A DNA stretch of 64,000 bases, taken from the NCBI GenBank assembly GCA_051747805.1, contig JBNJGP010000002.1:7608-71607 (forward strand), in the 5' to 3' direction. Shown here piece after piece: positions 12,590-62,918 of this stretch. The notes beneath the pieces were generated by a model that was not told where the DNA came from, ran no database searches, and worked only from the letters and a program-made list of their open reading frames with translations. The stretch is from Candidatus Muiribacteriota bacterium (GTDB lineage Bacteria; Muiribacteriota; Muiribacteriia; Muiribacteriales; Muiribacteriaceae). Position 1 is the stretch's first letter; every line of letters starts with the position of its first letter. A program made the translations under genes and the position numbers.

Positions 12590-12612
12590 AAATATTTTTA
12601 CCTTGTATAATC

Positions 12613-13815: not shown

Positions 13816-13839
13816 AATTGTTTACCGAATTTTCCCTCG

Positions 13840-33880: not shown

Positions 33881-33889
33881 TTAAACTCC

Positions 33890-36067: not shown

Positions 36068-36152
36068 ATTTATCTCCCGATTATTTTTAATACCTGATTG
36101 TTTGAACTATCGGAAAATAAATAAAATTGAATTAAAACTTGAGGTTTTGAAT

Positions 36153-36815
36153 TTACCGCTGACCATTTACTTCAATAAATGAATTCATTCCTCCGTAACC
36201 GTCATCCTTTAAAATCTCAGCCTCAGTATCTGAATACCAATATTTTTCATCAACAACAAACATGTACATATATCTACCTGAATCAAGGAAAAACTCCCCA
36301 GTCCATACCCCGTCACCATCATAATCACTTAATTCATGCTTACCAGGCTGCCAGTTGTTGAAATCTCCCACAACAGAAACCGATTCAGCCTCATGATTAG
36401 TATAAGAAAAAATTATTATATTTTCATTTGTTTCCTCTTTAATTATGTCATTTTCTGAGCTCTTAATTTCTTCATCTTTTTCAACTTCTACAACTTCAAT
36501 ATAGGAATTTTCAAAGTTCCCGTCTTTTACAATTGATGGATTATCCGGGTCTAAAATCCAATCAGTATTATTTATCACAAATTTATACTGATAATTTCCT
36601 GTTTGCAGGGGGATAAATATCTCCCATCTCCCATCAACTTTTTCCATAATATGTGTAGTATCTGACCAGTCGTTAAAAGTTGCGGTCAGGGAAACACTTT
36701 CATAATTATTATTTTCTATATAAAAAAGCACTCCGTCCTGTTTTATAAGGTAACCAGAATAAATATTTATAAAAAATAATAAAAAAATAATAATAACAGG
36801 AATTTTTTTCTTCAT
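36153..36815 (-). CDS. Secreted protein with two tandem CBM48/AMPK-beta-like glycogen-binding-type domains
   Basis: Signal peptide. Two repeats of the F-NDW...W...L..G.Y.YKFVVD..W pattern (ATFNDWSDTTHIMEKVDGRWEIFIPLQTGNYQYKFVINNTDW and VVGDFNNWQPGKHELSDYDGDGVWTGEFFLDSGRYMYMFVVDEKYW). Confidence 0.5.
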   Translation of the reverse strand: MKKKIPVIIIFLLFFINIYSGYLIKQDGVLFYIENNNYESVSLTATFNDWSDTTHIMEKVDGRWEIFIPLQTGNYQYKFVINNTDWILDPDNPSIVKDGNFENSYIEVVEVEKDEEIKSSENDIIKEETNENIIIFSYTNHEAESVSVVGDFNNWQPGKHELSDYDGDGVWTGEFFLDSGRYMYMFVVDEKYWYSDTEAEILKDDGYGGMNSFIEVNGQR

Positions 36816-36832: not shown

Positions 36833-37984
36833 TTACTTTTTCCAGATGTCATCTAAATAATTTTTAAGCTCATTATATCTGTTTATACTTTTTAAATAAC
36901 TTTTTAAATGATTTTCTGTCATACAGCCAAAAGGTTGTCCAAAACAGTACTTGCATATTTTAATCAAGTTAAAGTTATCAGTTATATGATACATACGGAG
37001 TTTTTTTAATTTCTCTCCCTGCCAAATATCAAAAAAAGGAGTTTCCTTTACATTTCCAAGACTCATATTTGCCCTGAAATCTCTGCAACAGGCAGAAGTT
37101 TCACCATCATATCTTATACCAAAATGCTGCCAAAGTCCTACACAGGGCTGTCTTCTTTTATTTTTATCTTTTTTATCTTCCTCGGAGTATTCCCCTGACA
37201 CAAACGATTTTTTTCCTTTAGTTTCTTTTTTTAATAATCCCTCTTTAATTAAAACATTTTTATGTAATTCATCATAATAAGACTGTTTTTTATTATCTTC
37301 AGCAATCAGTCTTCTTAAAAAAATACTATCCTGCTCGAGTCCGGCAGAATCGTCCCAGATAACAGGCGGGTCTATCCCATATTTTTCAAATTCAGTTTTC
37401 CAGAAATCAATAAAATCTCCCGCCTCCTCAAAATTTTCATCCATTATAATAAACTGTAATATAAGGCTGGGGAATTCTCTCTTTTTACTAAAACGGAGTT
37501 TAATAAAATTTTTAATATTTTGAACTGTTTTATTAAAATCTCCCCCTCTTCTGATTTTTCTATAGGTTTCATAGGAATTAGAGTCAATTGATACAGTGAT
37601 GGGTCCAAATAAATCCGATTCAATTATTGTTTCTGCAACTTCTTCATCAATAAGGGTAAAGTTTGAATGAAGTGACCATACTTCCCAACATTCTGGAAAC
37701 ATTTTCTTTTTTTCTGTCGCGTATTCAACAGCCTTTTTAAATTCAGGGTAAAGTGCGGGTTCTCCATTCCAGAAAGGTATAATTACGCGGGCTTTCTGTG
37801 GCGGTGTGCATAATTCATCAATAATTTTTTTATATAAACCAAAATCCATAACACCCCTGAATTTTTCATTTCTGTTTATTTTCGACTGAGGACACATAAT
37901 ACAGTTAAGATTGCAGTAGGAAATTAAATCCAGGATCAAAACAGGTATTGGTTCATTATGCTTTTTTAAAATAAAATCTGTCAT
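36833..37984 (-). CDS. Radical SAM enzyme with C-terminal SPASM/twitch auxiliary-cluster domain (paralog 1)
   Basis: CNLNCIMC (CX3CX2C) 16 aa from the start. GGE-like FWNGEPALYPEF. KIRRGG. C-terminal PCVGLWQHFGIRYDGETSACC (C-x13-G-x4-C) and CKYCFGQPFGC. Confidence 0.8.
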   Translation of the reverse strand: MTDFILKKHNEPIPVLILDLISYCNLNCIMCPQSKINRNEKFRGVMDFGLYKKIIDELCTPPQKARVIIPFWNGEPALYPEFKKAVEYATEKKKMFPECWEVWSLHSNFTLIDEEVAETIIESDLFGPITVSIDSNSYETYRKIRRGGDFNKTVQNIKNFIKLRFSKKREFPSLILQFIIMDENFEEAGDFIDFWKTEFEKYGIDPPVIWDDSAGLEQDSIFLRRLIAEDNKKQSYYDELHKNVLIKEGLLKKETKGKKSFVSGEYSEEDKKDKNKRRQPCVGLWQHFGIRYDGETSACCRDFRANMSLGNVKETPFFDIWQGEKLKKLRMYHITDNFNLIKICKYCFGQPFGCMTENHLKSYLKSINRYNELKNYLDDIWKK

Positions 37985-38058
37985 TTATAATCCTTCTTAA
38001 GCTTATCAAAATAAGTAACTGCCGCCATTCAACTAAGGATTTTCGGGCAAATTGAGAA

Positions 38059-40215
38059 TTACTGGCAATTCTCAACAATAGTAATCGGTTTTTCCCTGAT
38101 TTCTGCTGAATTTTCAAGCGCTTTATACATAATACTTAGACCGTTGGCAAATCCTGATTTTTCCTTTATTTCAAATTTAAGCTCATTGACTCCCTCATTT
38201 AATTTTAAACTTTCTGTTTTTTTTCTTCCTGAAAAAATCTTATAAACAAATCCGTAACAATCTTTTTTGCCAATCGTAAGTCTGCAGAAAAAAACAGAGT
38301 TAATATATATATATAATTCCGATTTTTTTTCTGTATGCTGTGAACATGCGCTAAAGGACAGTTCAAACTTTTCTGGTATTTTATCAAGCTTAAAGTTATA
38401 AGTTATATAACCATAATCGGCCCCTAAAACATGAGTATAACCTTTAAAAAAATCAGTTTCACCTTTCCAGTAAAAAGCAGGTAATCTATTCCACATAGCC
38501 TCTTCCCACATATCTACAGGTATAAAAATATTTCTTCCTTCTTTTTCAGAAAAAGACAACTTATCTTTATTTGAAAGACGAATTGGTCTTTTTGTCACTT
38601 TTTTACATATTTTCACAAACTCTTTTTCAGAAAAATCTTCAGGAATATAAGTTATATTATCAGAAAAATACTCATCCCAGTCATCTGTTAATATTTTTCC
38701 GCCAAAAAAATCAATTTTTTTTCTGAGAGTTGTTCCAGGATGAGGCTGCATAATCTGAAAATCCCATCCAGCCTCAGGCTTAAGTTCTTCTATTAAGTTA
38801 AGGCTGTCTTGAATTGAGGAGGGAGTTTCGCCTGGACTGCCTATAATCATTAGCATTCCTGCAGGAAGCTTTATTTTTTCATGTAATTTTAAGGCCTTTT
38901 TCACATCTTCAACAGTAAAATTCTTGTTTAATTTTTTCAAAATCTCATCATTTCCAGATTCAACTCCATAAGTAACTTTAACGCAACCAGCTTTTTTCAT
39001 TAAAGTTAAAAGTTTTAAATCAACCATGTTTACCCTGGTATTGCACCTCCATTTAATATTAATATTCTTTTTTATAAGGGTTTTACAGAATTCAACAACC
39101 TTATCTTTAAAAACAGTAAAAGCATCATCATCAATAACAAAATTATAAATATTATATTTTTCAATTATATAAGTTATTTCTTTTATAATTCTTTCGATAG
39201 ACATTATTCTGACCCGTCTTTTCCACATATGGGGAGATTCACAGAATATACAATTTGAAGGACATCCTCTTGAAAACATTACAACTGCCGATACAAGGCT
39301 TCCCGTATCCTCAAAGGTAATATCATCAAAAATATACCCCCGGGTCGGCATAATACTTCTATTTATTAATGGTATTTTATCTGCCTCAAGAAACTCTGCC
39401 TCAGAATTTTTAATAATCTTTTTACCTTTTCTATAAATCAGGGAGGGAATTTTACAAAATTCAACATTATTATTTTCTATACTTTTTAATAATTTCAAAA
39501 AGGGAATCTCGCCCTCACCGCTGATAATAAAATCCATTTTTGAGTTATTCATTATATAATCATAGTTCATTGTGGCAAAAACACCACCCATTACAGTAAG
39601 GCACTCAGGATATAATTCTCTGAAGAGATTGGCAAGATTCATAGCTCCCTTTGCCTGATAAGTCATTCCCGTAATTCCTAATATATTAAATTTATTTTTT
39701 CTGGCATACTCAACAACTTCGTAATTATCAAATCCTGAGTAATTCATGTTGATAATTTCAACATCGTAATAATCCTCAATAATAGAGGCAATACAGCCAA
39801 GACCAAGAGTTACGGTTGTTTTAAAAGGGGCTTTCTCAGATACTCTTGGATTAACAAGCAGCACTCTGGGTCTGGAGATTGATTTCACTATATATTCTAA
39901 AACTCTGTGCTTGGCCTCTTTTTCTAAATAGTTGACAGTTTCAGAGGGACTTAAATAAAAATCAGGTCTACATTTAACACATTTTTTTGGCAGATCTTTT
40001 TTCAAAATATGATTCAACCTGAATTTTTTCATAGAATCACTTTCCCATAATTTGAAAATATTATTATCTATATCTCCAATTTTTAAATCAAGTGTTAAAT
40101 CATAATTACATACAGTTACTGAACCGTCAGCTCTTAAAACAGGGGATTTAAAAACTGCACCGCAGGGAAGTTTATGTTTTAGATAATATGTCAATTTTTC
40201 CTCCTCCTTGGGCAA
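38059..40215 (-). CDS. Cobalamin-binding (class B) radical SAM enzyme preceded by a detached SPASM-like segment. The start is a TTG, and it may be the 3' part of a frameshifted gene
   Basis: aa 15-90 (LPCGAVFKSPVLRADGSVTVCNYD...CVKCRPDF) aligns with the C-terminal SPASM segment of the neighbouring paralogs. A B12-binding Rossmann-like region follows (ILGITGMTYQAK...VMGGVFAT). The radical SAM core is SRGCPSNCIFCESP, and about 200 aa of unknown C-terminal domain follow. Confidence 0.75.
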   Translation of the reverse strand: MPKEEEKLTYYLKHKLPCGAVFKSPVLRADGSVTVCNYDLTLDLKIGDIDNNIFKLWESDSMKKFRLNHILKKDLPKKCVKCRPDFYLSPSETVNYLEKEAKHRVLEYIVKSISRPRVLLVNPRVSEKAPFKTTVTLGLGCIASIIEDYYDVEIINMNYSGFDNYEVVEYARKNKFNILGITGMTYQAKGAMNLANLFRELYPECLTVMGGVFATMNYDYIMNNSKMDFIISGEGEIPFLKLLKSIENNNVEFCKIPSLIYRKGKKIIKNSEAEFLEADKIPLINRSIMPTRGYIFDDITFEDTGSLVSAVVMFSRGCPSNCIFCESPHMWKRRVRIMSIERIIKEITYIIEKYNIYNFVIDDDAFTVFKDKVVEFCKTLIKKNINIKWRCNTRVNMVDLKLLTLMKKAGCVKVTYGVESGNDEILKKLNKNFTVEDVKKALKLHEKIKLPAGMLMIIGSPGETPSSIQDSLNLIEELKPEAGWDFQIMQPHPGTTLRKKIDFFGGKILTDDWDEYFSDNITYIPEDFSEKEFVKICKKVTKRPIRLSNKDKLSFSEKEGRNIFIPVDMWEEAMWNRLPAFYWKGETDFFKGYTHVLGADYGYITYNFKLDKIPEKFELSFSACSQHTEKKSELYIYINSVFFCRLTIGKKDCYGFVYKIFSGRKKTESLKLNEGVNELKFEIKEKSGFANGLSIMYKALENSAEIREKPITIVENCQ

Positions 40216-40948
40216 TATTTTTCAAAAACTCGGTATTCTTTAGAATTCCTGCCTGTTTTAATGCTTTTTCATAAAGATTATTAGCCTCTGCCTGATTTAT
40301 TTGCAGTTTATCACTTTGAACAGTTAAGGGTCTTATATTTACGCCATTTTCGAGTGCCATACTGCAGTTTAAACTAATTTCAAAATCAAGTTTATTTTCT
40401 GTAAACACTTTTTTCCAGAAAGAAATAAAATAACTAAGTTCATTATAATTTTCATTTTGAACAATAAACTGAATCATAGTTTTTATATTATTGTTTTCTC
40501 TAACCTTTTTTAAGAAATTTTTAATATTCTCTATAACTTTTTCAAAATTTCCACCCACTCTTATTTTATTATAAGCTCCCTCACAAAAGGCATCAACAGA
40601 AAATATCACGCTGAGTTTTTTATCCCTGGCCGCGTCCATTATTGCCTCGACTTTTTTAGAGTTCAACAGTTCCCCGTTAGTATCAAAACAAATGTGATTG
40701 ATTTTTTTGCTTTCAGATAATTTATACATTATTTTTTCAAAATCAGGATGCATGAGAGATTCTCCCGCCCAGAAAGTTCTCAGTACGTTTATTTTATAAC
40801 TTGAGCTTTCTAATTGAAAAAGAAATTTTTCAACTGTATCAAGTTCCATAAAAAGTGGCGGAAGCACATCTCTATTTTTAAGAAAACACATTCTGCAACG
40901 ATAATTACATTTATTTGTAAGTTCTAAAGTTAAATCAATAGTGTTCAA
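40172..40948 (-). CDS. Radical SAM core domain protein lacking the SPASM tail (paralog 2, probably the 5' part of a split gene)
   Basis: CNYRCRMC, FWAGESLMHPDF, DTNGELL and KIRVGGNFEKVIENIKNF are all collinear with the other paralogs. The ORF ends before the Cys-rich C-terminal domain. Its 3' end overlaps the next ORF (40172-40215) in the +1 frame. Confidence 0.7.
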   Translation of the reverse strand: MNTIDLTLELTNKCNYRCRMCFLKNRDVLPPLFMELDTVEKFLFQLESSSYKINVLRTFWAGESLMHPDFEKIMYKLSESKKINHICFDTNGELLNSKKVEAIMDAARDKKLSVIFSVDAFCEGAYNKIRVGGNFEKVIENIKNFLKKVRENNNIKTMIQFIVQNENYNELSYFISFWKKVFTENKLDFEISLNCSMALENGVNIRPLTVQSDKLQINQAEANNLYEKALKQAGILKNTEFLKNIAQGGGKIDILSKT

Positions 40949-42126
40949 CTTTCTAATTCCCTTTTGTAAATGTTTAATTCTTCTTCTGATATATAGGGAG
41001 TATCAAGGCCTGAACAGTTTAAACATTTTTTATCCCCGTTATGAGTCAAAACTTTGTCAAAATCTCCATTTAAATGATTTTTTCTCATCTCGGTTAATTT
41101 ATCGCCAAACCATAGATCTGAGAAAGTATAATCTTTCAGGTTTCCCAAAGCAAGTTCCATTGAAGGGTCAAAACAACATACAGTAAGCGAACCGTCCCAC
41201 TTTATAGAGGGAGTTTTCCATAAGCCCGAGCAAGGTCTTCTTATTGTTTTGTCTTTTTCCTCATTTTTTTGTTTATCCTGCTCTGGATTCCAGAGATTAA
41301 AACTTGAAACAATAATTTCTGCCTCTTCAAGAACCTCTGATTTAAGGTTGAACTTTTCCATAGTATCCATATATATTTTCTGGGCCTCAAAAATTCTGTC
41401 AGTATCAAGTCTTTTAAACCATATAACATCATCAGGCGGAGTTATATTTATTTTTTTGCCTATTTTACGACCCAGTGAATATCCGGACAGGCCGGTGATT
41501 TTATTTAAATATTTTGCTTTAGAACCTGTACTGTATTTCTGTAATTTTTTAAGCCAGGATTTTTTAAACTCCAGGGCCTCATCTTTGTTTTCTTCCATAA
41601 CAATAAACTGAAAAATTAAACCAGGTTTTTTCTTTTTAAGCGCGGCCCTTTTTTTTAAAAAATTTTCTATATTTTCAACCGCCCTGTTTAAGTCTCCGCC
41701 CCTTCTTATTTTTTTATAAGTGTCTGGTTTCACAGCATCCAGACTTAAAGTTATTCTGGGTATCCGCTGAGAATACTCTAAAAGAAGCTCAATAATCTCA
41801 TCAGAAAGAAAATAAGCATTTGTATGAAGGTCTATGTAATAATTGCCCTTATTCTCTGAATTTAAAATATTATTACACTCTTTAAGCATATCAGCAAAAA
41901 CAGGATTTAAAAAAGGTTCTCCCAGCCAGAAAAGTTTCAGACCACAGGCAGCATTCATTTCAGGAAGTTCTTTTATGATTTTTTTAAAGAGTTTTTTATC
42001 CATAAATCCCTGTTTAGAAGAGTGTGGTCCCTCAGGCCTGTCATGACAGCACATTATACAGTTATAATTACAAAAATCGGTTAGTTCTACAAGAATATAT
42101 TGATCCAGAAAGTTTTGCATCCACAT
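40945..42126 (-). CDS. Radical SAM / SPASM-twitch enzyme (paralog 3)
   Basis: CNYNCIMCC, FWLGEPFLNPVF, KIRRGGDLNRAVENIENF, C-terminal PCSGLWKTPSIKWDGSLTVCC and CLNC. Confidence 0.8.
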   Translation of the reverse strand: MWMQNFLDQYILVELTDFCNYNCIMCCHDRPEGPHSSKQGFMDKKLFKKIIKELPEMNAACGLKLFWLGEPFLNPVFADMLKECNNILNSENKGNYYIDLHTNAYFLSDEIIELLLEYSQRIPRITLSLDAVKPDTYKKIRRGGDLNRAVENIENFLKKRAALKKKKPGLIFQFIVMEENKDEALEFKKSWLKKLQKYSTGSKAKYLNKITGLSGYSLGRKIGKKINITPPDDVIWFKRLDTDRIFEAQKIYMDTMEKFNLKSEVLEEAEIIVSSFNLWNPEQDKQKNEEKDKTIRRPCSGLWKTPSIKWDGSLTVCCFDPSMELALGNLKDYTFSDLWFGDKLTEMRKNHLNGDFDKVLTHNGDKKCLNCSGLDTPYISEEELNIYKRELES

Positions 42127-43236
42127 TTAAAAATCCTCTAAATATTTTAAATACTCATCAAACCCGTATTTTTTCAAATATTTTTCCAGTTCTTTTTTAT
42201 TTATCTCAGGAGAATCAAGGTTATTACATTTTATACATTTGGGCATTGTCTCAAGCTCGCCTTTAATATGCGCAAGTCTGTAATTATGACATTTTTTTGA
42301 ATGCCATAAATCCTCAAGTGAAACGTTTTTAATATTCCCGAGAGACAGCTCCCTCAAAGTATCTATACAACAGACTGTCACCTCTCCCTCCCAGTTAACC
42401 ATAACATATTTAAACGGCCCGGAACACGGATAACGCCTTTTTTCTCCTCTGTATTCACGGCTTTCAACAGCTCTTTCTTCTCTGTTTGATTTATTTTTTA
42501 TTAATCCCAGTTCTACCATTTTATCAAAATGAAGCTTTTCAGATTTCGCCAGATTTTCATGTTTAATTGGATTCAGTCTTTTAAAAAAAATTGTATCTTT
42601 AATCATAGGAGGGTGCCAGTCATAATTTGTCTGAAAATCTATACGATTTTTTTTTAAAAAATTTTTCCAGTAATTATAAAAACTTAAAACTTCATGTTTA
42701 TTTTCTTCCATAATTATAAATTGAAGAGTTATACGTGGAACCCCTGTTTTTTTCCGTCTTTTAAATAATTTTTCTATATTATTTACTACTTTATCAAATG
42801 AACGATTTTTTCTTATATTATAATAAGTTTCAGAAGAGGCAGCATCCAGGGAGAAACTTAAGGTAAACGGAACACTTGCCTTATTTGAAATTAATTCTAT
42901 CACTTCTTCATTAATACCTGTACCATTAGTATGCAAGTCTATTGTTTTAAAGTATCTTCCAGTTTCATTTATTCTGAATATTTCCGCAAGAAAATCATTA
43001 AATTCAGGATGAAGCGTGGACTCTCCAAGACCAAACGGGATTAATTTATCAAAATACATATCTTTTTGAACAATTTCATCTATAAGCTTAGAAAAAATTT
43101 TTTTATCCATAAAACCTTTCTTGGCAACATTTTGTGATTGTGTACACATAATGCAGGAACAGTTACAGAAATTTGTAACCTCAAGCCCTAAAACAGTATT
43201 ATCAAAAAAATTTTTTAACATTTTAACTTCTTCCAA
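42127..43236 (-). CDS. Radical SAM / SPASM-twitch enzyme (paralog 4)
   Basis: CNCSCIMC, FGLGESTLHPEF, C-terminal PCSGPFKYVMVNWEGEVTVCC and CIKC. Confidence 0.8.
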   Translation of the reverse strand: MEEVKMLKNFFDNTVLGLEVTNFCNCSCIMCTQSQNVAKKGFMDKKIFSKLIDEIVQKDMYFDKLIPFGLGESTLHPEFNDFLAEIFRINETGRYFKTIDLHTNGTGINEEVIELISNKASVPFTLSFSLDAASSETYYNIRKNRSFDKVVNNIEKLFKRRKKTGVPRITLQFIIMEENKHEVLSFYNYWKNFLKKNRIDFQTNYDWHPPMIKDTIFFKRLNPIKHENLAKSEKLHFDKMVELGLIKNKSNREERAVESREYRGEKRRYPCSGPFKYVMVNWEGEVTVCCIDTLRELSLGNIKNVSLEDLWHSKKCHNYRLAHIKGELETMPKCIKCNNLDSPEINKKELEKYLKKYGFDEYLKYLEDF

Positions 43237-46200
43237 ACCTATTTTTATATATTTTTATTAATTTTTCCTCTCCAACACTGTAAAGCCAGCTTTCAACCTC
43301 TTCATCCTTAAGAGGATATTTGACCCAGTTTAAACAATCCCTGCATTTTGGAAGCTTATCAAATTCTCCAAGCACATGGGCTAGCCTGAGCTCTTTTAAA
43401 GCGTCTCCATACCATACACTTTCAAGCCCCTCTTCAATAACATTTCCAATAGGCATTTTCACCTGATCATCACGACAGCATGCTGTAGCCCAACCATCCC
43501 ATGTAATAGAACACATCTGCCAGAGTGAACGACAGGGTCTTCTTTTAACTCCTTTTTTTACAGAAGAAATTATTTCTCTGTGTTTCTGAGCTTTTGTAAG
43601 AGCATTAGGTTCCAACGACTTAATAAAAACAACGTCTTTATCTATCTGAGGAAAAAGAAGGTTAGGCTTTGTGGGAAGATTATACTTATTATCTTCTTTT
43701 CTTCCAGCATAAATAACCTCATCTATACCAATTTTCCTTCCAAGTTCAACAAAAGACATAATTTCATCTACATTTTCATCCATAACTATAAACTGTAAAA
43801 TTACAGCAGGTCTCAAAACATTAGCCTCTTTCCTTTTTAACATTAATCTTTTAATATTCTCAATTACAACATTAAGCTCGCCGTTAACTCTTATTTTTTG
43901 GTATGTTTCTTCAGTTGCCGCATCTATAGAAAATAAGATTGAATCAAGCTCAGAATTAATAAGGGTTTCTATATGTTCATCAGTTAACACATTTCCATTT
44001 GTATGAATATTATAATGCTGTATATTTCCTGGAATTCTTCTAATCTGAGATAAAAGCTCTATAAATTCATTTATCTGAGGATGAATAAACGATTCTCCAA
44101 GCCAGTATGGAACAACTTCCCAGATATTGAGCTTTTTACTTTTTATTTCATCAGTAATTTTTTTAAAATCCTTAAGTTTCATGACTCCGAGGCTGCGCTC
44201 GAAAGAATTATCTCCGTGATTACACATAATACATGATAAATTACATAAATTTGTCGGCTCTATAAAAAGTGCGGCACCGGATAATCCCCATTTTTTAGAT
44301 TTTCTGGTTTCTTCAATCCGTATATCTTTAAGAGAAAAACTATTTTTTCCTTTTTTAATATTTTTTTCCATCAGATAAGAAATATCTTTATAATCATAAA
44401 GCGTACCAGAAATATTTATTTTAGGCGAAGAGGTTGAAATTTTATTTTCAAGATTCTCTATGAATGTATTTTCTTTCTTTATGTTTGAAATTTTACTTAA
44501 CTTTTGTGATTTACCTCTCATTAAACTCACCGGACTCCAAGTTGCAAAGTAAACTCTACCCTGAACAGGAACTTTCTGCCATTCAAGGCCAATATAAAAT
44601 TCATAATTTATCACTTTTTGAAGTGAAGCTTTTCCTTCAAGTTTATTCAAAGGAATGTTTACCTTGGTAAAAACACTGCTTTCAGTTAATGATGTCCATT
44701 CATAAGAAGAAATATTATTGTCAGTATCTCTGATAGAAAAACGAACTTTAAATCCAGGTTTATCAGATAAAAAATTAAAAGTAATAAATTTTTTACCTTT
44801 AAAAGAAACAGGCTGACCAAAATCATTTCTTTTTAAAATAATCCAGTTCTCAAGACTGTTTTCAGTATTTATACCAAAATCAACTTTCAGGCAGGGATAA
44901 TTCAGCATAGGGTGTTTCCAGGCACCATTAATATTAATAAATGAATCTTTACCACTTGATACCCAGTAATTTTTCAACTCAGAATCTCCGAAAAAATTGA
45001 AATCCTCAAGATTATAATATAAATCAGAGCTTATTTTATTTCCAGCAATACGTGGTAATGTAAAATTAATAATTCCTTTTTTGCTTTTTTCTGAGCTTAT
45101 ATTGTTGAAATGAAATTCAACATATTTAATATGCGCGAAATTAAAAGAAAGATTTTTTTCAACGTTAAAATCCGATTTTTTAAATATTATATTTGAAAGA
45201 TTCCCGCCCCGAATAATATCTGCTTTAGAGCTTATTTCATTATTTTCTATGTCAGTTAAAACAAATTTAACCGTAGCATTAAGGCTCGAGTTTATAATAG
45301 AACTAATCTGATTGAATCCAGAAAAATCCGTTGTTTCTGAAAAAAGCATATTAAATCTTATAATCAAAAAATTTTCACCATTATCAACAATTCTGAAACT
45401 AACTTCATTTTGTGATAATTTTTTACTGTTTGAAATAATGTTGTTGCTCTCAACCAGAGAAATAAAATTTTCATTAATCTTATAATCCGGGGTATCGTAC
45501 AAAACTTCATTTTTCTGTTTTGTATTCTGAACAACTTTTTCAATATCTGCAGCATAAAAAACAATTTTATACAATTTTATATTTTCGTATTCTTCCCCAT
45601 TTATATACAAGTTTAATGATTTTAAAAATTTTGCGTCCCCGGAAGCATCCTGCCATACAGGAAAGAAAAAATCTTTTATCTTAAAATAATAAAAACACGA
45701 ATTTACTGGAACTCCCCTTACAGGATTTGACCACTTTTCCAACCCGTTATCTGTTTCAAGAATCAACCTTAAATCGTTTCGGGGATATTTAGTTAAATAT
45801 AAACCTATTCCTTCTATTTCTTCGAGTATGAGATTAACTAATTCTGAATGGGTAATTTTTACTATAGAATAGGCAGATTTATCAACTTCTGAACCCGAAT
45901 AGTCTATCTCAAGAGAGTTACTTTCAAGATTTAAGTTAATTTCTGAGTCTTTTGACTCAGTCCTCAAATTCAGCTTTCTGAGCTCTGACGCCTCAATAGA
46001 AGAGACTTCATAACCTGCCGGTATTTCTTCAGTCTGCTGCGATTGAATAAAAAAGCCGTTAATAACCGCATTTATTTTTGAAGCAGCTTTTATTAAAAAG
46101 TTGACACCAGTTAATTTAAACTTTTTAAAAGAAACAGGTTTTTTCAAAACAAACTCACTACTGTTTCTAATTTCAGGCAAAAAAGTGTTTTTTCCACCTT

Positions 46201-46954
46201 CAAATTCAAGTTCCACTAGTATGCGCGCTTTTTCCAGGAAATCTATTTTTAAGAGAATTCCACAAAAATCTTTCGAGGCTCTATTTTTAAAAAAAGAAAA
46301 ATCTATTTTATTCCAGCCTGAGTTTTGATTAAAGTCTCCTTTAATTATTAGTTTATTATTTTCTAAATAGCAACTATCTTTATTTAAATAACTTCTTTTT
46401 GTTTCTACTTTCCCATTAAAATATTCAAAAAAAGGAGTTTTATACATCTCAACTCCAAACATTGGAGGAACCTCAATATAATATAAATCCAAAAACTCTA
46501 ATTCTATCTTTTTAGTTTTATTATTTAAATAAAATCCAACAGATAAAATATCCCCGAATAATTTAATATTTTTATCGCTCCATTTAGGCGCTGAAAAATC
46601 ACTAAACAAAAAGTGTATTTTATTTTTACCTTTCTTTAATTTAGTGAATTTTGTAAAAAATTCATTTTGAGCGGAATCTTTTAGAACTAAGGCAAAATAA
46701 CATTTATCACTGGCTTTAATTTCAAGTTCAAACCCCCTTAAACTTGCACTGTCTATAAAAACAGGCTGAAAATATTCACACCAGATGACTTCTTCTGTTT
46801 TTTTTAAAGTCTGTTTAGAATCGTCCAGATAAGTCTCAAAAAAATCAACAGGCCCCTTTTCTGTGATATAAACACCATTATAGGCATTGATGAAAATTTT
46901 TCTTTTTTTTATATTCTCATGGGCAAATAAAATATTTTCCATCTTTTTTACCAA
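43223..46954 (-). CDS. 1243-aa fusion: about 880-aa N-terminal domain of unknown function plus a C-terminal radical SAM / SPASM-twitch module (paralog 5)
   Basis: The last 360 aa or so carry CNLSCIMCNH, YWLGESFIHPQI, HTNGNVL, KIRVNGELNVVIENIKRL, PCRSLWQMCSITWDGWATACC and CRDC. The N-terminal region has no signal peptide or TM and looks beta-rich by composition. Confidence 0.75.
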   Translation of the reverse strand: MVKKMENILFAHENIKKRKIFINAYNGVYITEKGPVDFFETYLDDSKQTLKKTEEVIWCEYFQPVFIDSASLRGFELEIKASDKCYFALVLKDSAQNEFFTKFTKLKKGKNKIHFLFSDFSAPKWSDKNIKLFGDILSVGFYLNNKTKKIELEFLDLYYIEVPPMFGVEMYKTPFFEYFNGKVETKRSYLNKDSCYLENNKLIIKGDFNQNSGWNKIDFSFFKNRASKDFCGILLKIDFLEKARILVELEFEGGKNTFLPEIRNSSEFVLKKPVSFKKFKLTGVNFLIKAASKINAVINGFFIQSQQTEEIPAGYEVSSIEASELRKLNLRTESKDSEINLNLESNSLEIDYSGSEVDKSAYSIVKITHSELVNLILEEIEGIGLYLTKYPRNDLRLILETDNGLEKWSNPVRGVPVNSCFYYFKIKDFFFPVWQDASGDAKFLKSLNLYINGEEYENIKLYKIVFYAADIEKVVQNTKQKNEVLYDTPDYKINENFISLVESNNIISNSKKLSQNEVSFRIVDNGENFLIIRFNMLFSETTDFSGFNQISSIINSSLNATVKFVLTDIENNEISSKADIIRGGNLSNIIFKKSDFNVEKNLSFNFAHIKYVEFHFNNISSEKSKKGIINFTLPRIAGNKISSDLYYNLEDFNFFGDSELKNYWVSSGKDSFININGAWKHPMLNYPCLKVDFGINTENSLENWIILKRNDFGQPVSFKGKKFITFNFLSDKPGFKVRFSIRDTDNNISSYEWTSLTESSVFTKVNIPLNKLEGKASLQKVINYEFYIGLEWQKVPVQGRVYFATWSPVSLMRGKSQKLSKISNIKKENTFIENLENKISTSSPKINISGTLYDYKDISYLMEKNIKKGKNSFSLKDIRIEETRKSKKWGLSGAALFIEPTNLCNLSCIMCNHGDNSFERSLGVMKLKDFKKITDEIKSKKLNIWEVVPYWLGESFIHPQINEFIELLSQIRRIPGNIQHYNIHTNGNVLTDEHIETLINSELDSILFSIDAATEETYQKIRVNGELNVVIENIKRLMLKRKEANVLRPAVILQFIVMDENVDEIMSFVELGRKIGIDEVIYAGRKEDNKYNLPTKPNLLFPQIDKDVVFIKSLEPNALTKAQKHREIISSVKKGVKRRPCRSLWQMCSITWDGWATACCRDDQVKMPIGNVIEEGLESVWYGDALKELRLAHVLGEFDKLPKCRDCLNWVKYPLKDEEVESWLYSVGEEKLIKIYKNRFGRS

Positions 46955-49034
46955 AGCAAAGCTTATCCTTTTTCTTTTTTACAATAAATAAATTATCTTT
47001 ATTAATACTTTCTATACTAACATAATCATTTTCTGTTTTGAACTCTGAAATAAATAAATGAAAGTTTATATTATTCTGTTTTGAAATTTTATCAAAAAAT
47101 TTTATTTTTTCCTCATCTAAAATATTTATCTTAACAGGAATTACCGTGTTAAAGAATTTTAAAAATTTTTTTTCCTTAAAACTAATTTCATCTAATATTT
47201 CTGTTTGAAATAATTCTGAATAAAAGAACTCAAAATCTTCATTGCACTCAATTAAGGTGGTTTTAGAAGATAAAATTTTCAAAAGTTTTATTTTTATTAA
47301 AATTTTATTAATCCAGCTTAATATATTTTTTAAACTTTTTTCTAAAAAACTTAGTTTTATAAAAACAAGCAGACTTATAAAAACTAAAATTAATAAAAGT
47401 GATAATAGATTTTTTTTATTTTCTTCGCCGTTTCCCCTGTAATTAAATTCAAATTCTATATTTTTATTTAAATCAATATTTTCCTGCATTATTTTTTTAT
47501 AAATTTTTTTTTGGGAGTTTAATCCCCATATCTGAAAAAAACCTTCTTTAGCAGTTGCTGTATCTTCATAAAAATATTTACCCTCGTCAAAAATAAGTTT
47601 GTTTTTTTGAAAGCTTTCAAAATTTTTCTCCTCTTTATTAAAATTATGTACTATAAAAAACTCTTCAAAAAATTCAACAGGCAAATTATTAAAAGCAAGA
47701 TTATAATTAACCATATTTTTTCTTTTTTTATCGAAATTAAGCTTAAGTTGAATTTGCTGTGCTTCAAATACCGGTATCTCAAAAAATTTACTTTCCTTAC
47801 CATCTTCTGATATGAATTTTACTCTTATAAAATCTGGTGTTTTTTCTTTATCAGATAAGGGAACAAAAAAACTTAAAAAAAACTTATCCTGTTTTTTTTT
47901 CATCTGAAAAAATTCCGGAATATAATGAAACTCTCCATTTATAAAATAATTTTTTTTTAAAAAAACCTGGTTTTTATCCCAGGTAACTTCAGCAAAAACC
48001 TCTGCATGTCCTTCTTTAATTAAAGTATTATCCTCATGAAGTTCTAAAAGAACCTGCTTATGGATTAATTCATTATTTTGAAAAAAAGATATTTCTGGTT
48101 TTTCCATAGTAAAAATCGGAGCTTTTATTGAATCACTTTTTAATTTAATTTTTGAAAACATATTTTTAAATTTCCAGTATATCCCTTTTTTATAAGTGTT
48201 TTCCGGAACAAATGTTATTTTTTCAGTCCTCAATTTTTTAAGCGGATAATCATTTTCTGTTATTTCAAAATTATAAATTTCTTCCTCATTATCTGAGAAA
48301 ATTCTACAGACATAAAATCCTGTTTTTTTAATATTAAAACTATAAGACTTCGGACCGGTAACTTTTCTTCCGTAAAGAACATTTGAACTTTCTAAGTTAT
48401 AAATTAAAAGGGTGGTCTCTTTTTCGGAGGGAATAAATATATTTACCTCTCCTTTAAATGGAGATATTCTAGAGAAATTTTTAAAATCAAGATTTAATTG
48501 AGAGTTATGTTTTTTTAAAGAATTTACATTAATATATCCTTTATAATATCTTTTATTATCCGTAATTTTTATTTTTTTGGTTTTAAAAGGATTTATAGTC
48601 AGGGATTTTAATAAACTGTTTTTTTCGACCTTTTCTGAGCCAAGCAACTTGGAATTATCATCTATTATATTTAATTTATCTACATAATCATATATGTTTT
48701 CAATTTTTATATTTAAATTAATAAAACTGACATTCAAGTTTAACTTCACTGTTTTATCTTTATAAGTTTGAAAGTTAAATACATGCCAAATTCTGTCGTT
48801 TTTGAACAACTTTATTTCATAATCATAATCAGTTGCAAGATAAATTTTTTTTTCAAACTGATTATTTTCAAACTCCAGAGGAAATACCCTTTTAGCTCCC
48901 CAGTCTGTTCTAAGTTCATAATTATTTTCATCTTCTGCAATCTTTTCCAGAGAAACAAAAAAAACTCCACTTTCCTGAGAAAAAGAGCTCAAAACACATA
49001 AAATAAAAAAGATAGAAAAAAAAAATTTTTTCAT
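46917..49034 (-). CDS. 705-aa bitopic membrane protein: signal peptide, about 520-aa extracytoplasmic domain, one TM helix, about 140-aa cytoplasmic tail
   Basis: N-terminus MKKFFFSIFFILCVLSSFSQE. The single hydrophobic helix is LLSLLLILVFISLLVFI at about aa 545-565. The tail is Lys-rich and ends CFGKKDGKYFICP. It is translationally coupled to rSAM genes on both sides. Confidence 0.5.
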   Translation of the reverse strand: MKKFFFSIFFILCVLSSFSQESGVFFVSLEKIAEDENNYELRTDWGAKRVFPLEFENNQFEKKIYLATDYDYEIKLFKNDRIWHVFNFQTYKDKTVKLNLNVSFINLNIKIENIYDYVDKLNIIDDNSKLLGSEKVEKNSLLKSLTINPFKTKKIKITDNKRYYKGYINVNSLKKHNSQLNLDFKNFSRISPFKGEVNIFIPSEKETTLLIYNLESSNVLYGRKVTGPKSYSFNIKKTGFYVCRIFSDNEEEIYNFEITENDYPLKKLRTEKITFVPENTYKKGIYWKFKNMFSKIKLKSDSIKAPIFTMEKPEISFFQNNELIHKQVLLELHEDNTLIKEGHAEVFAEVTWDKNQVFLKKNYFINGEFHYIPEFFQMKKKQDKFFLSFFVPLSDKEKTPDFIRVKFISEDGKESKFFEIPVFEAQQIQLKLNFDKKRKNMVNYNLAFNNLPVEFFEEFFIVHNFNKEEKNFESFQKNKLIFDEGKYFYEDTATAKEGFFQIWGLNSQKKIYKKIMQENIDLNKNIEFEFNYRGNGEENKKNLLSLLLILVFISLLVFIKLSFLEKSLKNILSWINKILIKIKLLKILSSKTTLIECNEDFEFFYSELFQTEILDEISFKEKKFLKFFNTVIPVKINILDEEKIKFFDKISKQNNINFHLFISEFKTENDYVSIESINKDNLFIVKKKKDKLCFGKKDGKYFICP

Positions 49035-50050
49035 ATTAATTTTTTTAAAAAATCAAGCTCCTCCTGACAGAACTTCGGGTAAACCTGTCCCATACATTTC
49101 CTGCAGGCTTTAAGGGTGCTTTTTTGCCTATTAATATGCTTTTTTTTATAATTTAAAAACTCTCTGCCGTTTATTATATCAGAAATTTTCATATTATGGA
49201 TATTCCCAACTTTTGCCTCACCACCCGTATCAACACAACAGGGAAAAACATCCCCATTTACACCCACAGTTATATGAGTAAACGGTCCAGAACAAATAAC
49301 AGGCTCAGAAAGAAATGAATAATCTGGATTATTAAAAAATTTTTTTACTGTTTTTTTAAAAATTTCATCATACCTGCTCTGCTTTTTTTTATTATACGGG
49401 AAAAGACATCTTCTAATAAAAATACTATCTCCGGCTTGAGCTTCAGAAGGTTTGTTATAATCATACTTCAGATTTAATTTCATACCTTTTTTGTTAAATA
49501 CCTGCTTCCAGTATGAAATAAACTGAGGAAGCTCTTCATAGTTTTCTTCCATTACAATATACTGTAAAACTATATGAGGTAAAGAGTTCATCTTATGCTT
49601 TCTTTTTTCCAAAAGTAATTTTACTGATTTTTCCAGTTTGCTTTTTTTACCACCACATCTTATTTTTTCATAACTTTCTTTTAAAAAAGCGTCGCATGAA
49701 ATTGTTATTACTGAAAAAATACCTGTTCCTGAAATAAAAGAACAGGTACTATTATCTAGAAGCATTCCGTTAGTATCAACTGCGACTCCATTTGCAATTA
49801 AGTTATTTTTATTTTCAAAAGAAAAAAACTCCATAATTTTTTTAAACTCAGGATGAAGCAAACTTTCACCCCGCCAGAAAGGTAGCATTACATTAAAGCT
49901 TAATTCTGCCTCTTTAACCTGAGAAATAATTTTTTTAAAAGTTTTAAATTTCATAAACTCGGGTTTTCTTCTTATCACAGGACACATTTTACAGTTGAGA
50001 TTACAGAAATTCGTAAGTTCAATTATTAATGTTGAATATTTATCAATCAT
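49031..50050 (-). CDS. Radical SAM / SPASM-twitch enzyme (paralog 6)
   Basis: CNLNCKMC, FWRGESLLHPEF, DTNGMLL, KIRCGG, C-terminal ICSGPFTHITVGVNGDVFPCC and CRKCMGQVYPKFC. Confidence 0.8.
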   Translation of the reverse strand: MIDKYSTLIIELTNFCNLNCKMCPVIRRKPEFMKFKTFKKIISQVKEAELSFNVMLPFWRGESLLHPEFKKIMEFFSFENKNNLIANGVAVDTNGMLLDNSTCSFISGTGIFSVITISCDAFLKESYEKIRCGGKKSKLEKSVKLLLEKRKHKMNSLPHIVLQYIVMEENYEELPQFISYWKQVFNKKGMKLNLKYDYNKPSEAQAGDSIFIRRCLFPYNKKKQSRYDEIFKKTVKKFFNNPDYSFLSEPVICSGPFTHITVGVNGDVFPCCVDTGGEAKVGNIHNMKISDIINGREFLNYKKKHINRQKSTLKACRKCMGQVYPKFCQEELDFLKKLI

Positions 50051-50063
50051 ATATAAAAAAACC

Positions 50064-51104
50064 TTATTTTATTTTTGAATATATTATGCAGGCTTCTTTA
50101 TCAGTCAACTGTGAAATATTATCTTTCACCATATTTTCAACAGTATCGTATTCACTAGTAATTTTAAAATCCTCGAGCAAGGCATAAGGTTTATTAAAAT
50201 AATAATCCCATATATAATTTAACATATCTTTGGCCTCTATACTCCCTTTAGATTTATCTGCCTGTTTATAAACTTCCTCAAACATGAATTTTCTCAACTT
50301 ATTTACGGAGTCAAGAACTTCTGATTTAAGGCTAATTGTTTTATTTTTTAAAGAATTTTCAATTAATGATTTAACCATTGTATCAACTCTTTTTCCGTGG
50401 GTTTTTCCAAGAATCTCCATACAATCTGATGGAAAATCCTCAAATTTTATATAATTCATATTAAGCGAATCTTCAATATCATGGTTTAAATAGGCAATTC
50501 CATCAGAATATCTCACAATATAGGCCTCATTAGTCACAGGAGGGCCACAGTCAAGAGCAAATGAATCAATCTCAGCAGAATCTTTGGAATGTTTTAAAAT
50601 ACCGTCTCTCACCTCGGCAGTAAGATTTAACCCTTTATCTTTTTTTGCAAGCTTATCTACAATTCTGAGAGAGTTTCTTGAATGATGAAACCCATTTTCT
50701 GAACGTTGATTCAACACTTTTTCACCTAAATGTCCAAACGGAGTATGTCCAATATCATGTCCTAGAGCAATTGCTTCTACAAGGTCCTCATTCATTTTCA
50801 GTGCCCTGGCTATTGTACGTGCGATCTGTGCCACTTCAAGAGTATGAGTAAGCCTTGTTCGCGGATGAATAAAATCCCCTATAATAAAAACTTGTGTTTT
50901 ATCTTTCAACCTTCTGAAAGGAGCGCAGTGAATTATTCTATCCCTGTCCCTCTGATAACAAGTTCTAAGTTCACTTTCTTTTTCGGTGACAACTCTTCCC
51001 CTGCTTTGAGAAGAAGTTTGTGCGAGTTCTTTATCTAGAAAAATATTCTCAAATTCTTCAATTTTCTTCCTTATTATCATCGTTAACATCCTCTTGGCCG
51101 CCAT
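50064..51104 (-). CDS. dGTP triphosphohydrolase-like HD-domain protein
   Basis: HSLEVAQIARTIA...GHDIGHTPFGH HD motif of the dGTPase family. Confidence 0.75.
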   Translation of the reverse strand: MAAKRMLTMIIRKKIEEFENIFLDKELAQTSSQSRGRVVTEKESELRTCYQRDRDRIIHCAPFRRLKDKTQVFIIGDFIHPRTRLTHTLEVAQIARTIARALKMNEDLVEAIALGHDIGHTPFGHLGEKVLNQRSENGFHHSRNSLRIVDKLAKKDKGLNLTAEVRDGILKHSKDSAEIDSFALDCGPPVTNEAYIVRYSDGIAYLNHDIEDSLNMNYIKFEDFPSDCMEILGKTHGKRVDTMVKSLIENSLKNKTISLKSEVLDSVNKLRKFMFEEVYKQADKSKGSIEAKDMLNYIWDYYFNKPYALLEDFKITSEYDTVENMVKDNISQLTDKEACIIYSKIK

Positions 51105-51450
51105 CTCCCTTAATTATTTTTTTTATTACCTTATTTAACTTCTCATAATTTTCAGCATCAAGCAGTTTATCCATCCATTTTTCTTTTTTAGAAAGAGGAA
51201 GTACTTTAACATCATTTTCGCTAATTGAAATAAAAGCAACAGGTTCTATTGAGGCCCCGCCGCCTGTACCGGCACCAAATCCAGGAAGCTTTTTCTTTTC
51301 TCCGCCGCCTGCTCCAAAACCAAACGTAACTTTGCTGACCGGGATAAGAGTTACTTTTCCAGCCTTAATTGGTTCACCTATTACTGTCTGACACTGAATT
51401 GAATTTTTAAGCTCATCTATTAGAGTTTTTACTACATTATCAAAAGCCAT
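51058..51450 (-). CDS. GerW/YtfJ-family protein
   Basis: VIGEPIKAGKVTLIPVSKVTFGFGAGGGE...GAGTGGGASIEPVAFISI matches the GerW/YtfJ glycine-rich core. Confidence 0.5.
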   Translation of the reverse strand: MAFDNVVKTLIDELKNSIQCQTVIGEPIKAGKVTLIPVSKVTFGFGAGGGEKKKLPGFGAGTGGGASIEPVAFISISENDVKVLPLSKKEKWMDKLLDAENYEKLNKVIKKIIKGDGGQEDVNDDNKEEN

Positions 51451-54253: not shown

Positions 54254-54659
54254 TCCCCAGTATTGATTCTATTTTTTTTAATAATTCATCAGGAGAAAAG
54301 GGTTTAACAAAGAAACCCTCAACCCCAACATGTTTTGCAAAAAAACTGTTTTTTTTATCACTTAAAGCTGTTATAACAATAACAGGAAGATTCTTTAATT
54401 TTTTATGGTTTTTTATCAGTCTTAATAGCTGCCAGCCGTTAAGCTGAGGCATCATTATATCAATTATTAGAAGATCATATATGTTTTTTTCAAGCTCATT
54501 CATAAGATTAACTGAATCATTTAAAGCTTTTACTTCATAGTTCTCAAGAGAAAGTAAAATATGAATAAAATCTGTAACATCTTTCTCATCATCAAGAATC
54601 AGTATTTTTTTCTTCCCGGTATTGTTTTCCATCATAATAACAAACTCTATTTCTCCCAT
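54243..54659 (-). CDS. Single-domain response regulator (REC/CheY-like). The start is uncertain; candidates are at 54659, 54635 and 54707
   Basis: KKILILDDEKDV...LLIIDIMMPQLNGWQLL...LPVIVITAL places the phospho-acceptor Asp and Lys in the expected positions. The ORF-track start at 54707 overlaps the upstream GGDEF gene. Confidence 0.7.
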   Translation of the reverse strand: MGEIEFVIMMENNTGKKKILILDDEKDVTDFIHILLSLENYEVKALNDSVNLMNELEKNIYDLLIIDIMMPQLNGWQLLRLIKNHKKLKNLPVIVITALSDKKNSFFAKHVGVEGFFVKPFSPDELLKKIESILGNDK

Positions 54660-56607: not shown

Positions 56608-56614
56608 TAGGCTC

Positions 56615-60221: not shown

Positions 60222-60236
60222 TTTCACCTCTTTTAT

Positions 60237-60267
60237 CAGCAATTCTAAATAAAATTTAGAATTGCTG
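60237..60267. repeat. Perfect 14-bp inverted repeat CAGCAATTCTAAAT-aaa-ATTTAGAATTGCTG in the hbd-crt intergenic spacer
   Basis: Read directly from the sequence. It sits 8 nt after the hbd stop and 16 nt before the crt ATG. The same core (GCAATTCTAAATAAAAT) is present upstream of gcvT. Confidence 0.5.
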
Positions 60268-60275
60268 AACCATTT

Positions 60276-61136: not shown

Positions 61137-61138
61137 TT

Positions 61139-62320: not shown

Positions 62321-62410
62321 GATTAACTCTCCTTTTATATTTTTATTTATATATTATATTATAACAGGCTTTAAAAAGCAATTAATGCATTTTGCGCCGC
62401 AACACTTTTT

Positions 62411-62806: not shown

Positions 62807-62918
62807 AATCTACCCCCTGAAAAAATATTATTATACTCTGATTCTTCTATTTGGCAAAAAGCTTAGGTGGTTATTCCAATCCAAAAAAAAAATTTCATAA
62901 TATCTAAAAAATATTTTT

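Follow-up and report, generated by a model that had tools for sequence, protein, structure and literature searches.

Eight tightly coupled genes in a 64,000-nt stretch of a Candidatus Muiribacteriota genome (contig JBNJGP010000002.1, positions 7,608 to 71,607; the window, hereafter) carry seven radical S-adenosylmethionine (SAM) domains, according to the list of open reading frames (ORFs) and Pfam. They lie on the minus strand at window positions 36833–50050. At somewhat less than an even chance, we tentatively read the array as a conserved operon whose radical SAM enzymes form a cytoplasmic complex and tailor a carbohydrate. The most likely substrate would be an oligo- or polysaccharide or a glycoconjugate precursor, not a peptide. 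All of the enzymes fall within known superfamilies, and the cluster is not covered by any curated model. A literature search on radical SAM/SPASM proteins with glycosyltransferases, polysaccharides or carbohydrate-binding modules (CBMs), or on Muiribacteriota or Wallbacteria, found no description of it. To our knowledge, radical SAM enzymes of the SPASM/twitch type are the largest pool of uncharacterised radical chemistry, and the multi-enzyme arrays studied so far act almost exclusively on peptides or lipids. The parts of the array, in the direction of transcription, are:

49031–50050, minus strand: R1, the first gene of the core, 339 aa, radical SAM and twitch-type C-terminal domain (Pfam Radical_SAM and SPASM).
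46917–49034, minus strand: membrane protein, 705 aa, with signal peptide, one transmembrane (TM) segment and cytoplasmic tail (topology prediction).
43223–46954, minus strand: R2 as a whole, 1243 aa, an extension of ~880 aa followed by radical SAM and twitch domains.
44315–46954, minus strand: N-terminal extension of R2, ~880 aa, four to five tandem CBM11/CIA30-like beta-sandwich modules.
43223–44314, minus strand: catalytic part of R2, residues ~881–1243 (Pfam Radical_SAM 898–1066, SPASM 1141–1207).
42127–43236, minus strand: R3, 369 aa (364 aa from the annotated start), radical SAM and twitch-type domain.
40945–42126, minus strand: R4, 393 aa, radical SAM and twitch-type domain (Pfam, paralog alignment, orthogroup).
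40172–40948, minus strand: R5 core, 258 aa, radical SAM core only (Pfam Radical_SAM only).
38059–40215, minus strand: B12-type protein, 718 aa, with twitch, B12-binding, radical SAM and beta domains.
39970–40194, minus strand: R5 twitch domain, the N-terminus of the B12-type protein (Pfam SPASM at residues 18–82 of the 718-aa ORF).
38581–39969, minus strand: class-B type radical SAM part of the 718-aa protein (Pfam B12-binding 135–242, Radical_SAM 313–475).
38059–38580, minus strand: C-terminal all-beta domain of the B12-type enzyme, ~175 aa, a family-specific accessory domain.
36833–37984, minus strand: R6, the last gene of the core, 383 aa, radical SAM and twitch-type domain.

The original prediction, made from the DNA letters and an ORF list, had described six paralogous radical SAM enzymes and one B12-type enzyme in overlapping or abutting genes, with no place for a precursor peptide. 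Its ORFs were all found where it had put them, on the minus strand like the rest of the region, and Pfam and the alignment agree with its six-plus-one count. At scores above the gathering thresholds, seven of the proteins match Pfam Radical_SAM, six match SPASM and one matches B12-binding; the seven Radical_SAM (PF04055) domains score 42.8–82.5 bits against a cut-off of 29.5. Neighbouring genes are separated by anything from a 44-nt overlap to a 74-nt gap, as had been claimed, with R1 and the 705-aa gene overlapping by 4 nt. The largest gap (37985–38058, 74 nt) leaves no room for a precursor-peptide ORF between the cluster genes, and no free-standing small ORF was found. Promoter and terminator scans gave counts equal to those of shuffled sequence and were uninformative, and Rfam and tRNA scans returned no matches.

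The whole array is one-to-one orthologous in Muiribacteriota (loci L001/L011, L002, L009, L010 and L090) and Wallbacteria (L003/L004 and L012), and this gene-neighbourhood comparison bears out the predicted coherent multi-radical-SAM unit. In a neighbour-joining tree, the paralogs form six orthogroups, each with Muiribacteriota and Wallbacteria members, so the six-fold duplication predates the split of the two lineages and six distinct functions have been kept. The conservation of the array is thus older than the separation of two candidate phyla, and DPANN archaea as well as ordinary polysaccharide loci contain relatives. A protein from a Muiribacteriota metagenome-assembled genome (MAG; P0001) matches R3 at 100% identity. 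A reduced cluster (L088) consists of R2 with two modules, R3, R4 and a coupled gene with a carbamoyltransferase C-terminal domain. Upstream of the array, YtfJ and HD dGTPase-like genes are present in Muiribacteriota only, and Wallbacteria carry a glyoxalase-like gene coupled to R1. In the window, the HD dGTPase-like gene (PADLOC dGTPase model, 229 bits) overlaps the YtfJ-family gene (50064–51450, minus strand). The HD gene and R1 share 4 nt in two other Muiribacteriota loci (L001 and L090), so that transcription of the unit may begin ahead of the radical SAM genes.

The six paralogs align collinearly with a mutual identity of 27–37%. All the motifs that the original prediction had listed were recovered in this alignment; those common to the six are CNxxCxMC, GE(S/P)xxHP, (D/H)TNG, S-DA..Y..IR, QFI-MEEN and PC..G-x4-C(C)...CxxC. 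In the C-terminal domain only four cysteines are invariant across the paralogs, in the pattern C..Gx4C...CxxC. A full SPASM domain is defined by seven cysteines (CX9-15GX4C, a gap, CX2CX5CX3C, a gap, and C) that bind two auxiliary [4Fe-4S] clusters, and a twitch domain, such as that of BtrN, MoaA or SkfB, is a truncated SPASM-like domain whose three to four cysteines bind one auxiliary cluster. Although Pfam SPASM matches six of the proteins, the CX5CX3C part of the seven-cysteine motif is missing. The cysteine pattern of the paralogs fits twitch, and BtrN and SkfB are among the top structural matches. Because just four cysteines are invariant, the domains are probably twitch-like with a single auxiliary cluster rather than full seven-cysteine SPASM.

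No cluster gene reaches the cut-off of any curated NCBIfam subfamily. The best matches of the paralogs are TIGR04317, TIGR04321 and TIGR04311, which align over nearly the full length at 57–119 bits against cut-offs of 250–400, with the top scores at 87–119 bits; TIGR04317, the tungsten cofactor oxidoreductase maturase, gives 78.5–118.6 bits against 380, and no aldehyde:ferredoxin oxidoreductase gene was found near the cluster. The anSME model TIGR03942 scores 21–41 bits against 349, AhbC, AhbD and NirJ score at most 49 bits against cut-offs of 500–650, and the PqqE and sactisynthase models are far below their cut-offs. The prediction that the enzymes fall into no characterised subfamily is in line with these scores. 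The AlphaFold2 (AF2) model of R3 has a pLDDT of 87, and its nearest solved folds in Foldseek are anSMEcpe, BtrN, SkfB, CteB, SuiB, BlsE, DesII, viperin and MoaA, with TM scores of ~0.5–0.6. The predicted fold is a generic SPASM/twitch fold without a close relative.

The claim that every paralog ends in a twitch/SPASM domain holds for all but the 258-aa R5 gene, which encodes the core only. Its absent auxiliary domain (PCG...VCN...CVKC) forms the N-terminus of the next protein, ahead of the B12-binding domain; in the alignment it matches the other paralogs' twitch domains and keeps the four cysteines. An internal TTG at 40194 has a strong Shine-Dalgarno sequence (GGAGGAGG) 5 nt upstream; the B12-type protein probably starts at this TTG, giving 711 aa, and a database protein of 711 aa (P0070) matches that start. 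The split between core and twitch-B12 is found in all orthologous clusters, with an overlap of 4 nt in Candidatus Muiribacterium halophilum and 11 nt in Wallbacteria, and three other Muiribacteriota loci have it as well. Since the split is conserved, the Shine-Dalgarno sequence precedes the internal TTG and the 711-aa protein matches it, a sequencing frameshift or pseudogene at the 258/718-aa junction was ruled out. In Wallbacteria, R6 is fused to the C-terminus of the B12-type enzyme, forming a polypeptide of 1086 aa.

The enzyme downstream of this junction has the domains of class B, with a B12-binding domain (PF02310, 47.6 bits against a cut-off of 32.1) and a radical SAM domain (PF04055, 82.5 bits) whose core motif is CPSNCIFC. 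Its nearest NCBIfam models, BchE, ApyD, PhpK, HpnJ and AprD4, are every one far below cut-off. Among solved proteins, the aminoglycoside sugar diol-dehydratase AprD4 (6fd2, E 6.6e-23) comes nearest in sequence and TokK second; AprD4 has the class-B fold but is not known to use cobalamin. The ~175-aa C-terminal beta domain is conserved in Muiribacteriota and Wallbacteria and rare elsewhere, with 17 matches among 1.84 billion representative proteins; all ten of the matches scanned with Pfam carry radical SAM domains. The domain itself has no significant Pfam match, and its single-sequence AF2 model (pLDDT 32) was unusable.

Only ~20 residues lie ahead of the CX3CX2C motif in the five paralogs other than R2, and R2 carries the ~880-aa CBM-like extension there instead. 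This extension comprises four to five tandem modules of ~170 aa each, which the iterated hidden Markov model (HMM) places at residues 55–146, 346–454, 517–618 and 687–791, and the same HMM finds two to five modules in every R2 ortholog. As no signal peptide was found in the extension, it should be cytoplasmic. Weak but consistent matches link the modules to CBM_11 (6 of 21 modules, best E 9.5e-5) and to CIA30 (5 of 21, best E 2.8e-5), single R2 modules staying below the Pfam gathering scores for both. The best PDB match of the module profile is a CBM11 structure (1v0a, E 0.029). The module HMM also matches an archaeal protein (L041:825–2003, E 1.7e-7) that passes the Pfam cut-offs for CBM_11 and CIA30 and whose gene lies immediately upstream of a related radical SAM array. 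To judge by its modules, the extension resembles a scaffold or binding part more than a substrate. A homolog search with 839 aa of the extension returned only itself, low-complexity words having swamped the candidate list, and a search with the catalytic part of R2 returned no full-length orthologs.

When species-representative genomes were scanned, related clusters of several paralogs turned up in archaea, DPANN among them, and in a large clade of Myxococcota type; 31 of 91 sources have a split between core and twitch. In the archaeal locus L041 (2021–6865) the genes form a staggered chain of core-twitch, core, twitch-core, twitch-core and twitch, variants of which occur in other DPANN-type archaea (L005, L014, L015, L017, L021, L023, L053 and L064). 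In such chains a gene opens with the twitch domain of the enzyme encoded before it and goes on with a new core. Stand-alone twitch genes of ~100 aa also occur in the archaeal relatives, and genes seem to have split and fused repeatedly at the core/twitch boundary.

The gene neighbourhoods of these relatives point to glycans. The archaeal clusters L017, L005 and L041 include genes for GT2, PMT-type GT-C and polysaccharide deacetylase proteins, and one family member (L093) lies in a Wzy-type locus with four GT2 and three GT4 genes, an acyltransferase, PMT_2 and a B12-type radical SAM gene. On two contigs family members overlap a sugar-1-phosphate nucleotidyltransferase gene, and in glycosyltransferase-rich loci a family member overlaps a DegT-family aminotransferase gene by 4 nt. 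In one protein (P0063) a GT2 domain is fused to the family core, with the signature motifs kept. The carbamoyltransferase domain gene coupled to L088 is a further link to sugar metabolism. The closest solved folds of the R3 model include the sugar-acting enzymes BtrN, BlsE and DesII, and AprD4, the solved sequence nearest to the class-B enzyme, is an aminoglycoside enzyme.

The Myxococcota-type loci form a group of their own. L019, L032, L040 and about 50 further loci (within L018–L087), apparently from a Myxococcota/'Deltaproteobacteria' clade, share a conserved set of genes. It comprises a full-length family member, a radical SAM gene that is divergently transcribed and only weakly related, a core-only gene (257 aa), genes for two uncharacterised proteins, a SPASM gene standing alone (~115 aa) and another radical SAM gene. 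Several of the MAG taxon labels (Klebsiella, Bifidobacterium, Enterobacterales) look wrong for DNA with a GC content of 61–73%.

If the array tailors a carbohydrate, its seven enzymes would work as one physical assembly, as suggested by the R5 twitch domain on the B12-type protein, the R6 fusion in Wallbacteria and the staggered chains in archaea. The R5 core could regain an auxiliary cluster only by docking on the B12-type protein, and the CBM-like modules, together with the C-terminal beta domain, would hold the sugar chain. Each paralog would abstract a different C-H hydrogen by way of a 5'-deoxyadenosyl radical, with the auxiliary cluster taking or giving an electron. BtrN and anSME, twitch/SPASM enzymes that oxidise alcohols, are the model for this, and by analogy with them the outcome could be oxidation, epimerisation or deoxygenation. 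The class-B enzyme would add a C-methyl group or perform an AprD4-like dehydration, and in Muiribacteriota the 705-aa protein would probably tether the complex to the inner membrane. The conserved split suggests obligate hetero-complexes, in which electrons or substrates may pass between active sites.

Several observations weigh against a carbohydrate substrate. No glycosyltransferase, nucleotide-sugar enzyme, flippase or polymerase gene was found in or beside the cluster in Muiribacteriota or Wallbacteria, so the substrate would have to come from elsewhere. The top structural match, anSME, acts on proteins. The CBM11/CIA30 assignment is weak for any single module (E 1e-4 to 1e-5), and the CIA30 fold serves also as a protein-assembly factor. 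The archaeal protein that links the modules to the Pfam families (L041:825–2003) has a lipoprotein signal and is therefore extracellular, unlike the cytoplasmic R2 extension. The relatives in glycan loci are only 24–40% identical to the window enzymes, and their function may not transfer.

The most elaborate form of the carbohydrate proposal is a new kind of glycan-editing machine, a cytoplasmic complex in which staggered fusions wire six twitch-type enzymes and one class-B enzyme for multi-site modification at the level of the polymer; we regard this as possible but doubtful. It is with similar reserve that we suggest that the auxiliary-cluster domain of each enzyme might be carried by its neighbour and that the machine might be membrane-tethered in some lineages, and we are no surer that tandem CBM-like modules might hold it on the sugar chain. 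Polysaccharide editing of this kind would be the carbohydrate counterpart of the multi-site radical tailoring of peptides (proteusins). More generally, a sugar-directed array would represent a new class of carbohydrate modification (radical epimerisation, oxidation, deoxygenation and C-methylation of glycans) and would explain what the many radical SAM genes without annotation do in capsule and O-antigen loci.

It is unlikely, though worth weighing, that the seven enzymes instead act in series on a soluble intermediate in a small-molecule pathway, leading to a cofactor or to a natural product such as a modified nucleotide, a cyclitol or an aminoglycoside-like compound. Twitch-type enzymes are typical of small-molecule chemistry, with BtrN and MoaA among the structural matches of R3, and the AprD4-like class-B enzyme would suit such a route. 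The HD dGTPase-like gene coupled upstream in Muiribacteriota, by the 4-nt overlaps in L001 and L090, would suit it too, but the upstream gene in Wallbacteria is glyoxalase-like instead. Tandem CBM-like modules and a membrane anchor would be unusual for a soluble route, no accompanying non-radical enzymes (aminotransferases, kinases or ligases) are present, and six paralogs of one fold acting in series are unprecedented for known cofactor routes.

We also consider it rather unlikely that the paralogs mature a protein or peptide, installing modifications such as cross-links, epimerisations, oxidations or methylation on a product encoded in the cluster or elsewhere. Multi-radical-SAM clusters for peptides that are made by the ribosome and modified after translation (RiPPs) exist, the best Foldseek match of R3 is anSMEcpe (E 1.8e-12), followed by SkfB, CteB and SuiB, and two of the best NCBIfam matches (TIGR04317 and TIGR04311) are putative 'metalloenzyme maturase' families. 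Against this, the maturase models all stay far below cut-off, and the paralogs have four invariant cysteines in place of the seven-cysteine SPASM usual for peptide maturases. The cluster also has no precursor ORF, peptidase or exporter gene, and no conserved precursor gene was found in the orthologous loci. The leader-recognition (RRE) domain that the original prediction had asked about was not found in the cluster proteins, since too few residues precede the CX3CX2C motif in five of the six paralogs, R2 has CBM-like modules at that place, and Pfam gives no PqqD match. An anSME reading based on a sulfatase-family protein encoded next to the array in L041 was rejected, as that protein has no C/S-x-P-x-R motif and is a lipoprotein.

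The original prediction had proposed one of the large embedded proteins as the substrate of such maturation, possibly through the cysteine-containing cytoplasmic tail of the 705-aa protein. It had correctly described a bitopic membrane protein; we found a signal peptide, a large outside domain, a single TM segment at residues 540–566 and a cytoplasmic tail of ~140 aa, with no Pfam or NCBIfam match over the protein. This topology is kept in Muiribacteriota, but identity between genera is just 22–27%, compared with 57–69% for the cluster enzymes, and no tail cysteine is conserved among Muiribacteriota. The gene is absent from the Wallbacteria locus L012, where R1 abuts R2, and from the reduced cluster L088. 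Because it evolves fast, has no conserved tail cysteine and is missing from Wallbacteria, the 705-aa protein is an unlikely substrate, and this candidate was set aside. On sequence grounds we take it to be a lineage-specific accessory rather than a conserved substrate, and possibly a membrane anchor. The other proposed substrate, the N-terminal domain of the 1243-aa protein, fared no better, as its CBM11/CIA30-like modules resemble a binding part or scaffold. A 66–70-aa protein with two TM segments is encoded convergently after R6 at L001:16440–16640 and L090:15243–15455 (both minus strand) and not at this position of the window. This protein does not resemble a precursor peptide.

Modification of a membrane lipid, in which acyl or isoprenoid chains would be cyclised, methylated or joined by C-C coupling in the manner of Tes, GrsA/B, Mss or HpnP/R, appears improbable. 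Known lipid-modifying radical SAM sets do combine SPASM and B12 enzymes (PMC13459092), which counts for this explanation, as do the bitopic membrane protein embedded in the cluster and the weak matches to Tes and ladderane-B12 models. However, the scores are 24–37 bits against 450 for the Tes model (NF045702) and 118 bits against 360 for the lipid-B12 model, no fatty-acid, isoprenoid or acyl carrier protein genes lie nearby, the membrane protein is not conserved, and the relatives are found in glycan loci rather than lipid loci. The sole lipid-related hint among the neighbours is a gene for a CMAS-type (cyclopropane-fatty-acyl-phospholipid-synthase-like) methyltransferase after the Wallbacteria cluster, on the same strand (L003:10228–11163). 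The original prediction had named an envelope lipid or glycan as its second option; the glycan half has gained from the neighbourhoods and fusions of the relatives, and the lipid half is left with this one lineage-specific gene.

An anti-phage or nucleotide-directed role, in which viperin-like enzymes modify nucleotides together with the adjacent dGTPase, is very hard to credit: PADLOC pVip models match the five paralogs other than R2 (E 1e-8 to 1e-16) and the HD protein matches the dGTPase model, but the pVip matches span only the generic radical SAM core (profile positions ~4–160 of 257), the NCBIfam viperin model (NF038283) gives at most 50 bits against 180, the dGTPase gene is unlinked in Wallbacteria, and the cluster is vertically conserved with housekeeping synteny and no defence island.

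Just downstream of the cluster in the window, three envelope glycan-binding proteins are encoded consecutively (32663–36815): a secreted protein with two CBM48 domains (36153–36815, minus strand), an OmpM-type SLH-porin (33890–36067, minus strand) and a lipoprotein with a Glucodextran_C SLH-like binding module (32663–33880, minus strand). An OmpM-type outer-membrane tether has been described for diderm Terrabacteria, including Wallbacteria (bioRxiv 10.1101/2021.05.31.446380). The CBM48 and SLH proteins noted earlier are thus present but do not belong to the conserved unit. The CBM48, SLH and Glucodextran_C genes were rejected as part of the system, since this position is taken by PilZ and ABC transporter genes in other Muiribacteriota; the PilZ protein of M. 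halophilum is encoded after the cluster at L001:16750–17142.

Signalling genes of the cyclic-di-GMP type flank the cluster on both sides (51452–57808 and 25452–27113, both minus strand). The multi-GAF HD-GYP protein encoded directly upstream (933 aa) is conserved in Muiribacteriota; the others are a response regulator, a GAF-GGDEF protein, a SpoIIE-type phosphatase and a further HD-GYP protein with FHA and GAF domains. Together with the PilZ gene of M. halophilum, they may hint at exopolysaccharide-linked regulation. Further away, the window encodes a 2650-aa HEAT and TPR repeat protein (14671–22623, minus strand), with a small HEAT-repeat ORF and an RDD-family protein downstream. Genes for lipid A acyltransferase, Kdo transferase and LpxK (10642–14658, minus strand) show that the organism makes lipopolysaccharide and hence is diderm. 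A butyrate-type fermentation block of crotonase, 3-hydroxyacyl-CoA dehydrogenase, thiolase and thioesterase (59448–63656, minus strand) adjoins a B12-binding aminomutase subunit (OAM_dimer and B12-binding), which indicates that cobalamin is used in other pathways of the organism too.

Among known systems, BtrN resembles the paralogs in its short N-terminus, radical SAM core and C...C...CxxC pattern, and probably in having a single auxiliary cluster; it is among the best structural matches of the R3 model (4m7t, E 1.6e-11, TM 0.67 on target length). BtrN, the butirosin 2-deoxy-scyllo-inosamine dehydrogenase, works with the aminotransferase BtrS in 2-deoxystreptamine synthesis, and the translational coupling of distant family members to a DegT-family aminotransferase gene recalls this pair. 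However, identity to BtrN is 13–15%, and BtrN is a single 250-aa enzyme acting on a soluble aminocyclitol, whereas the cluster has six paralogs and a class-B enzyme, CBM-like modules and a split gene, and no aminotransferase gene. With anSME, the best Foldseek match (4k36, TM 0.57), the paralogs share the absence of an RRE, and anSME oxidises a C-H beside a heteroatom; it differs in having two auxiliary clusters (seven to eight cysteines) against four invariant cysteines here, and no sulfatase gene was found among the window ORFs scanned.

TIGR04317, TIGR04311 and TIGR04321 (putative tungsten-enzyme maturase, Geobacter-type metalloenzyme maturase and spiro-SPASM) are the top-scoring curated families for all six paralogs, but with scores so far below cut-off the paralogs are not members; as far as we know, these families are themselves uncharacterised. 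The 718-aa protein shares its B12-binding and radical SAM domains with AprD4, TokK, BchE, HpnJ and PhpK, and differs from them by its foreign N-terminal twitch domain and rare C-terminal beta domain. The multi-radical-SAM RiPP cassettes, SynChlorMet with ScmE/ScmF and His-Xaa-Ser with HxsB/HxsC, likewise have several radical SAM/SPASM paralogs in one operon; they carry a precursor gene, which is not present here, and their models give at most 39 bits against 268–400. The last comparison, with the alginate C5-epimerases AlgE1–7, is by analogy only, as their folds and chemistry are unrelated and they are extracellular and calcium-dependent, whereas the present enzymes would be cytoplasmic and radical-based. 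AlgE1–7 are secreted proteins built of A modules and R modules; like the R2 protein, they join a catalytic part to non-catalytic modules in tandem, which in this analogy would hold the sugar chain while several residues are edited.

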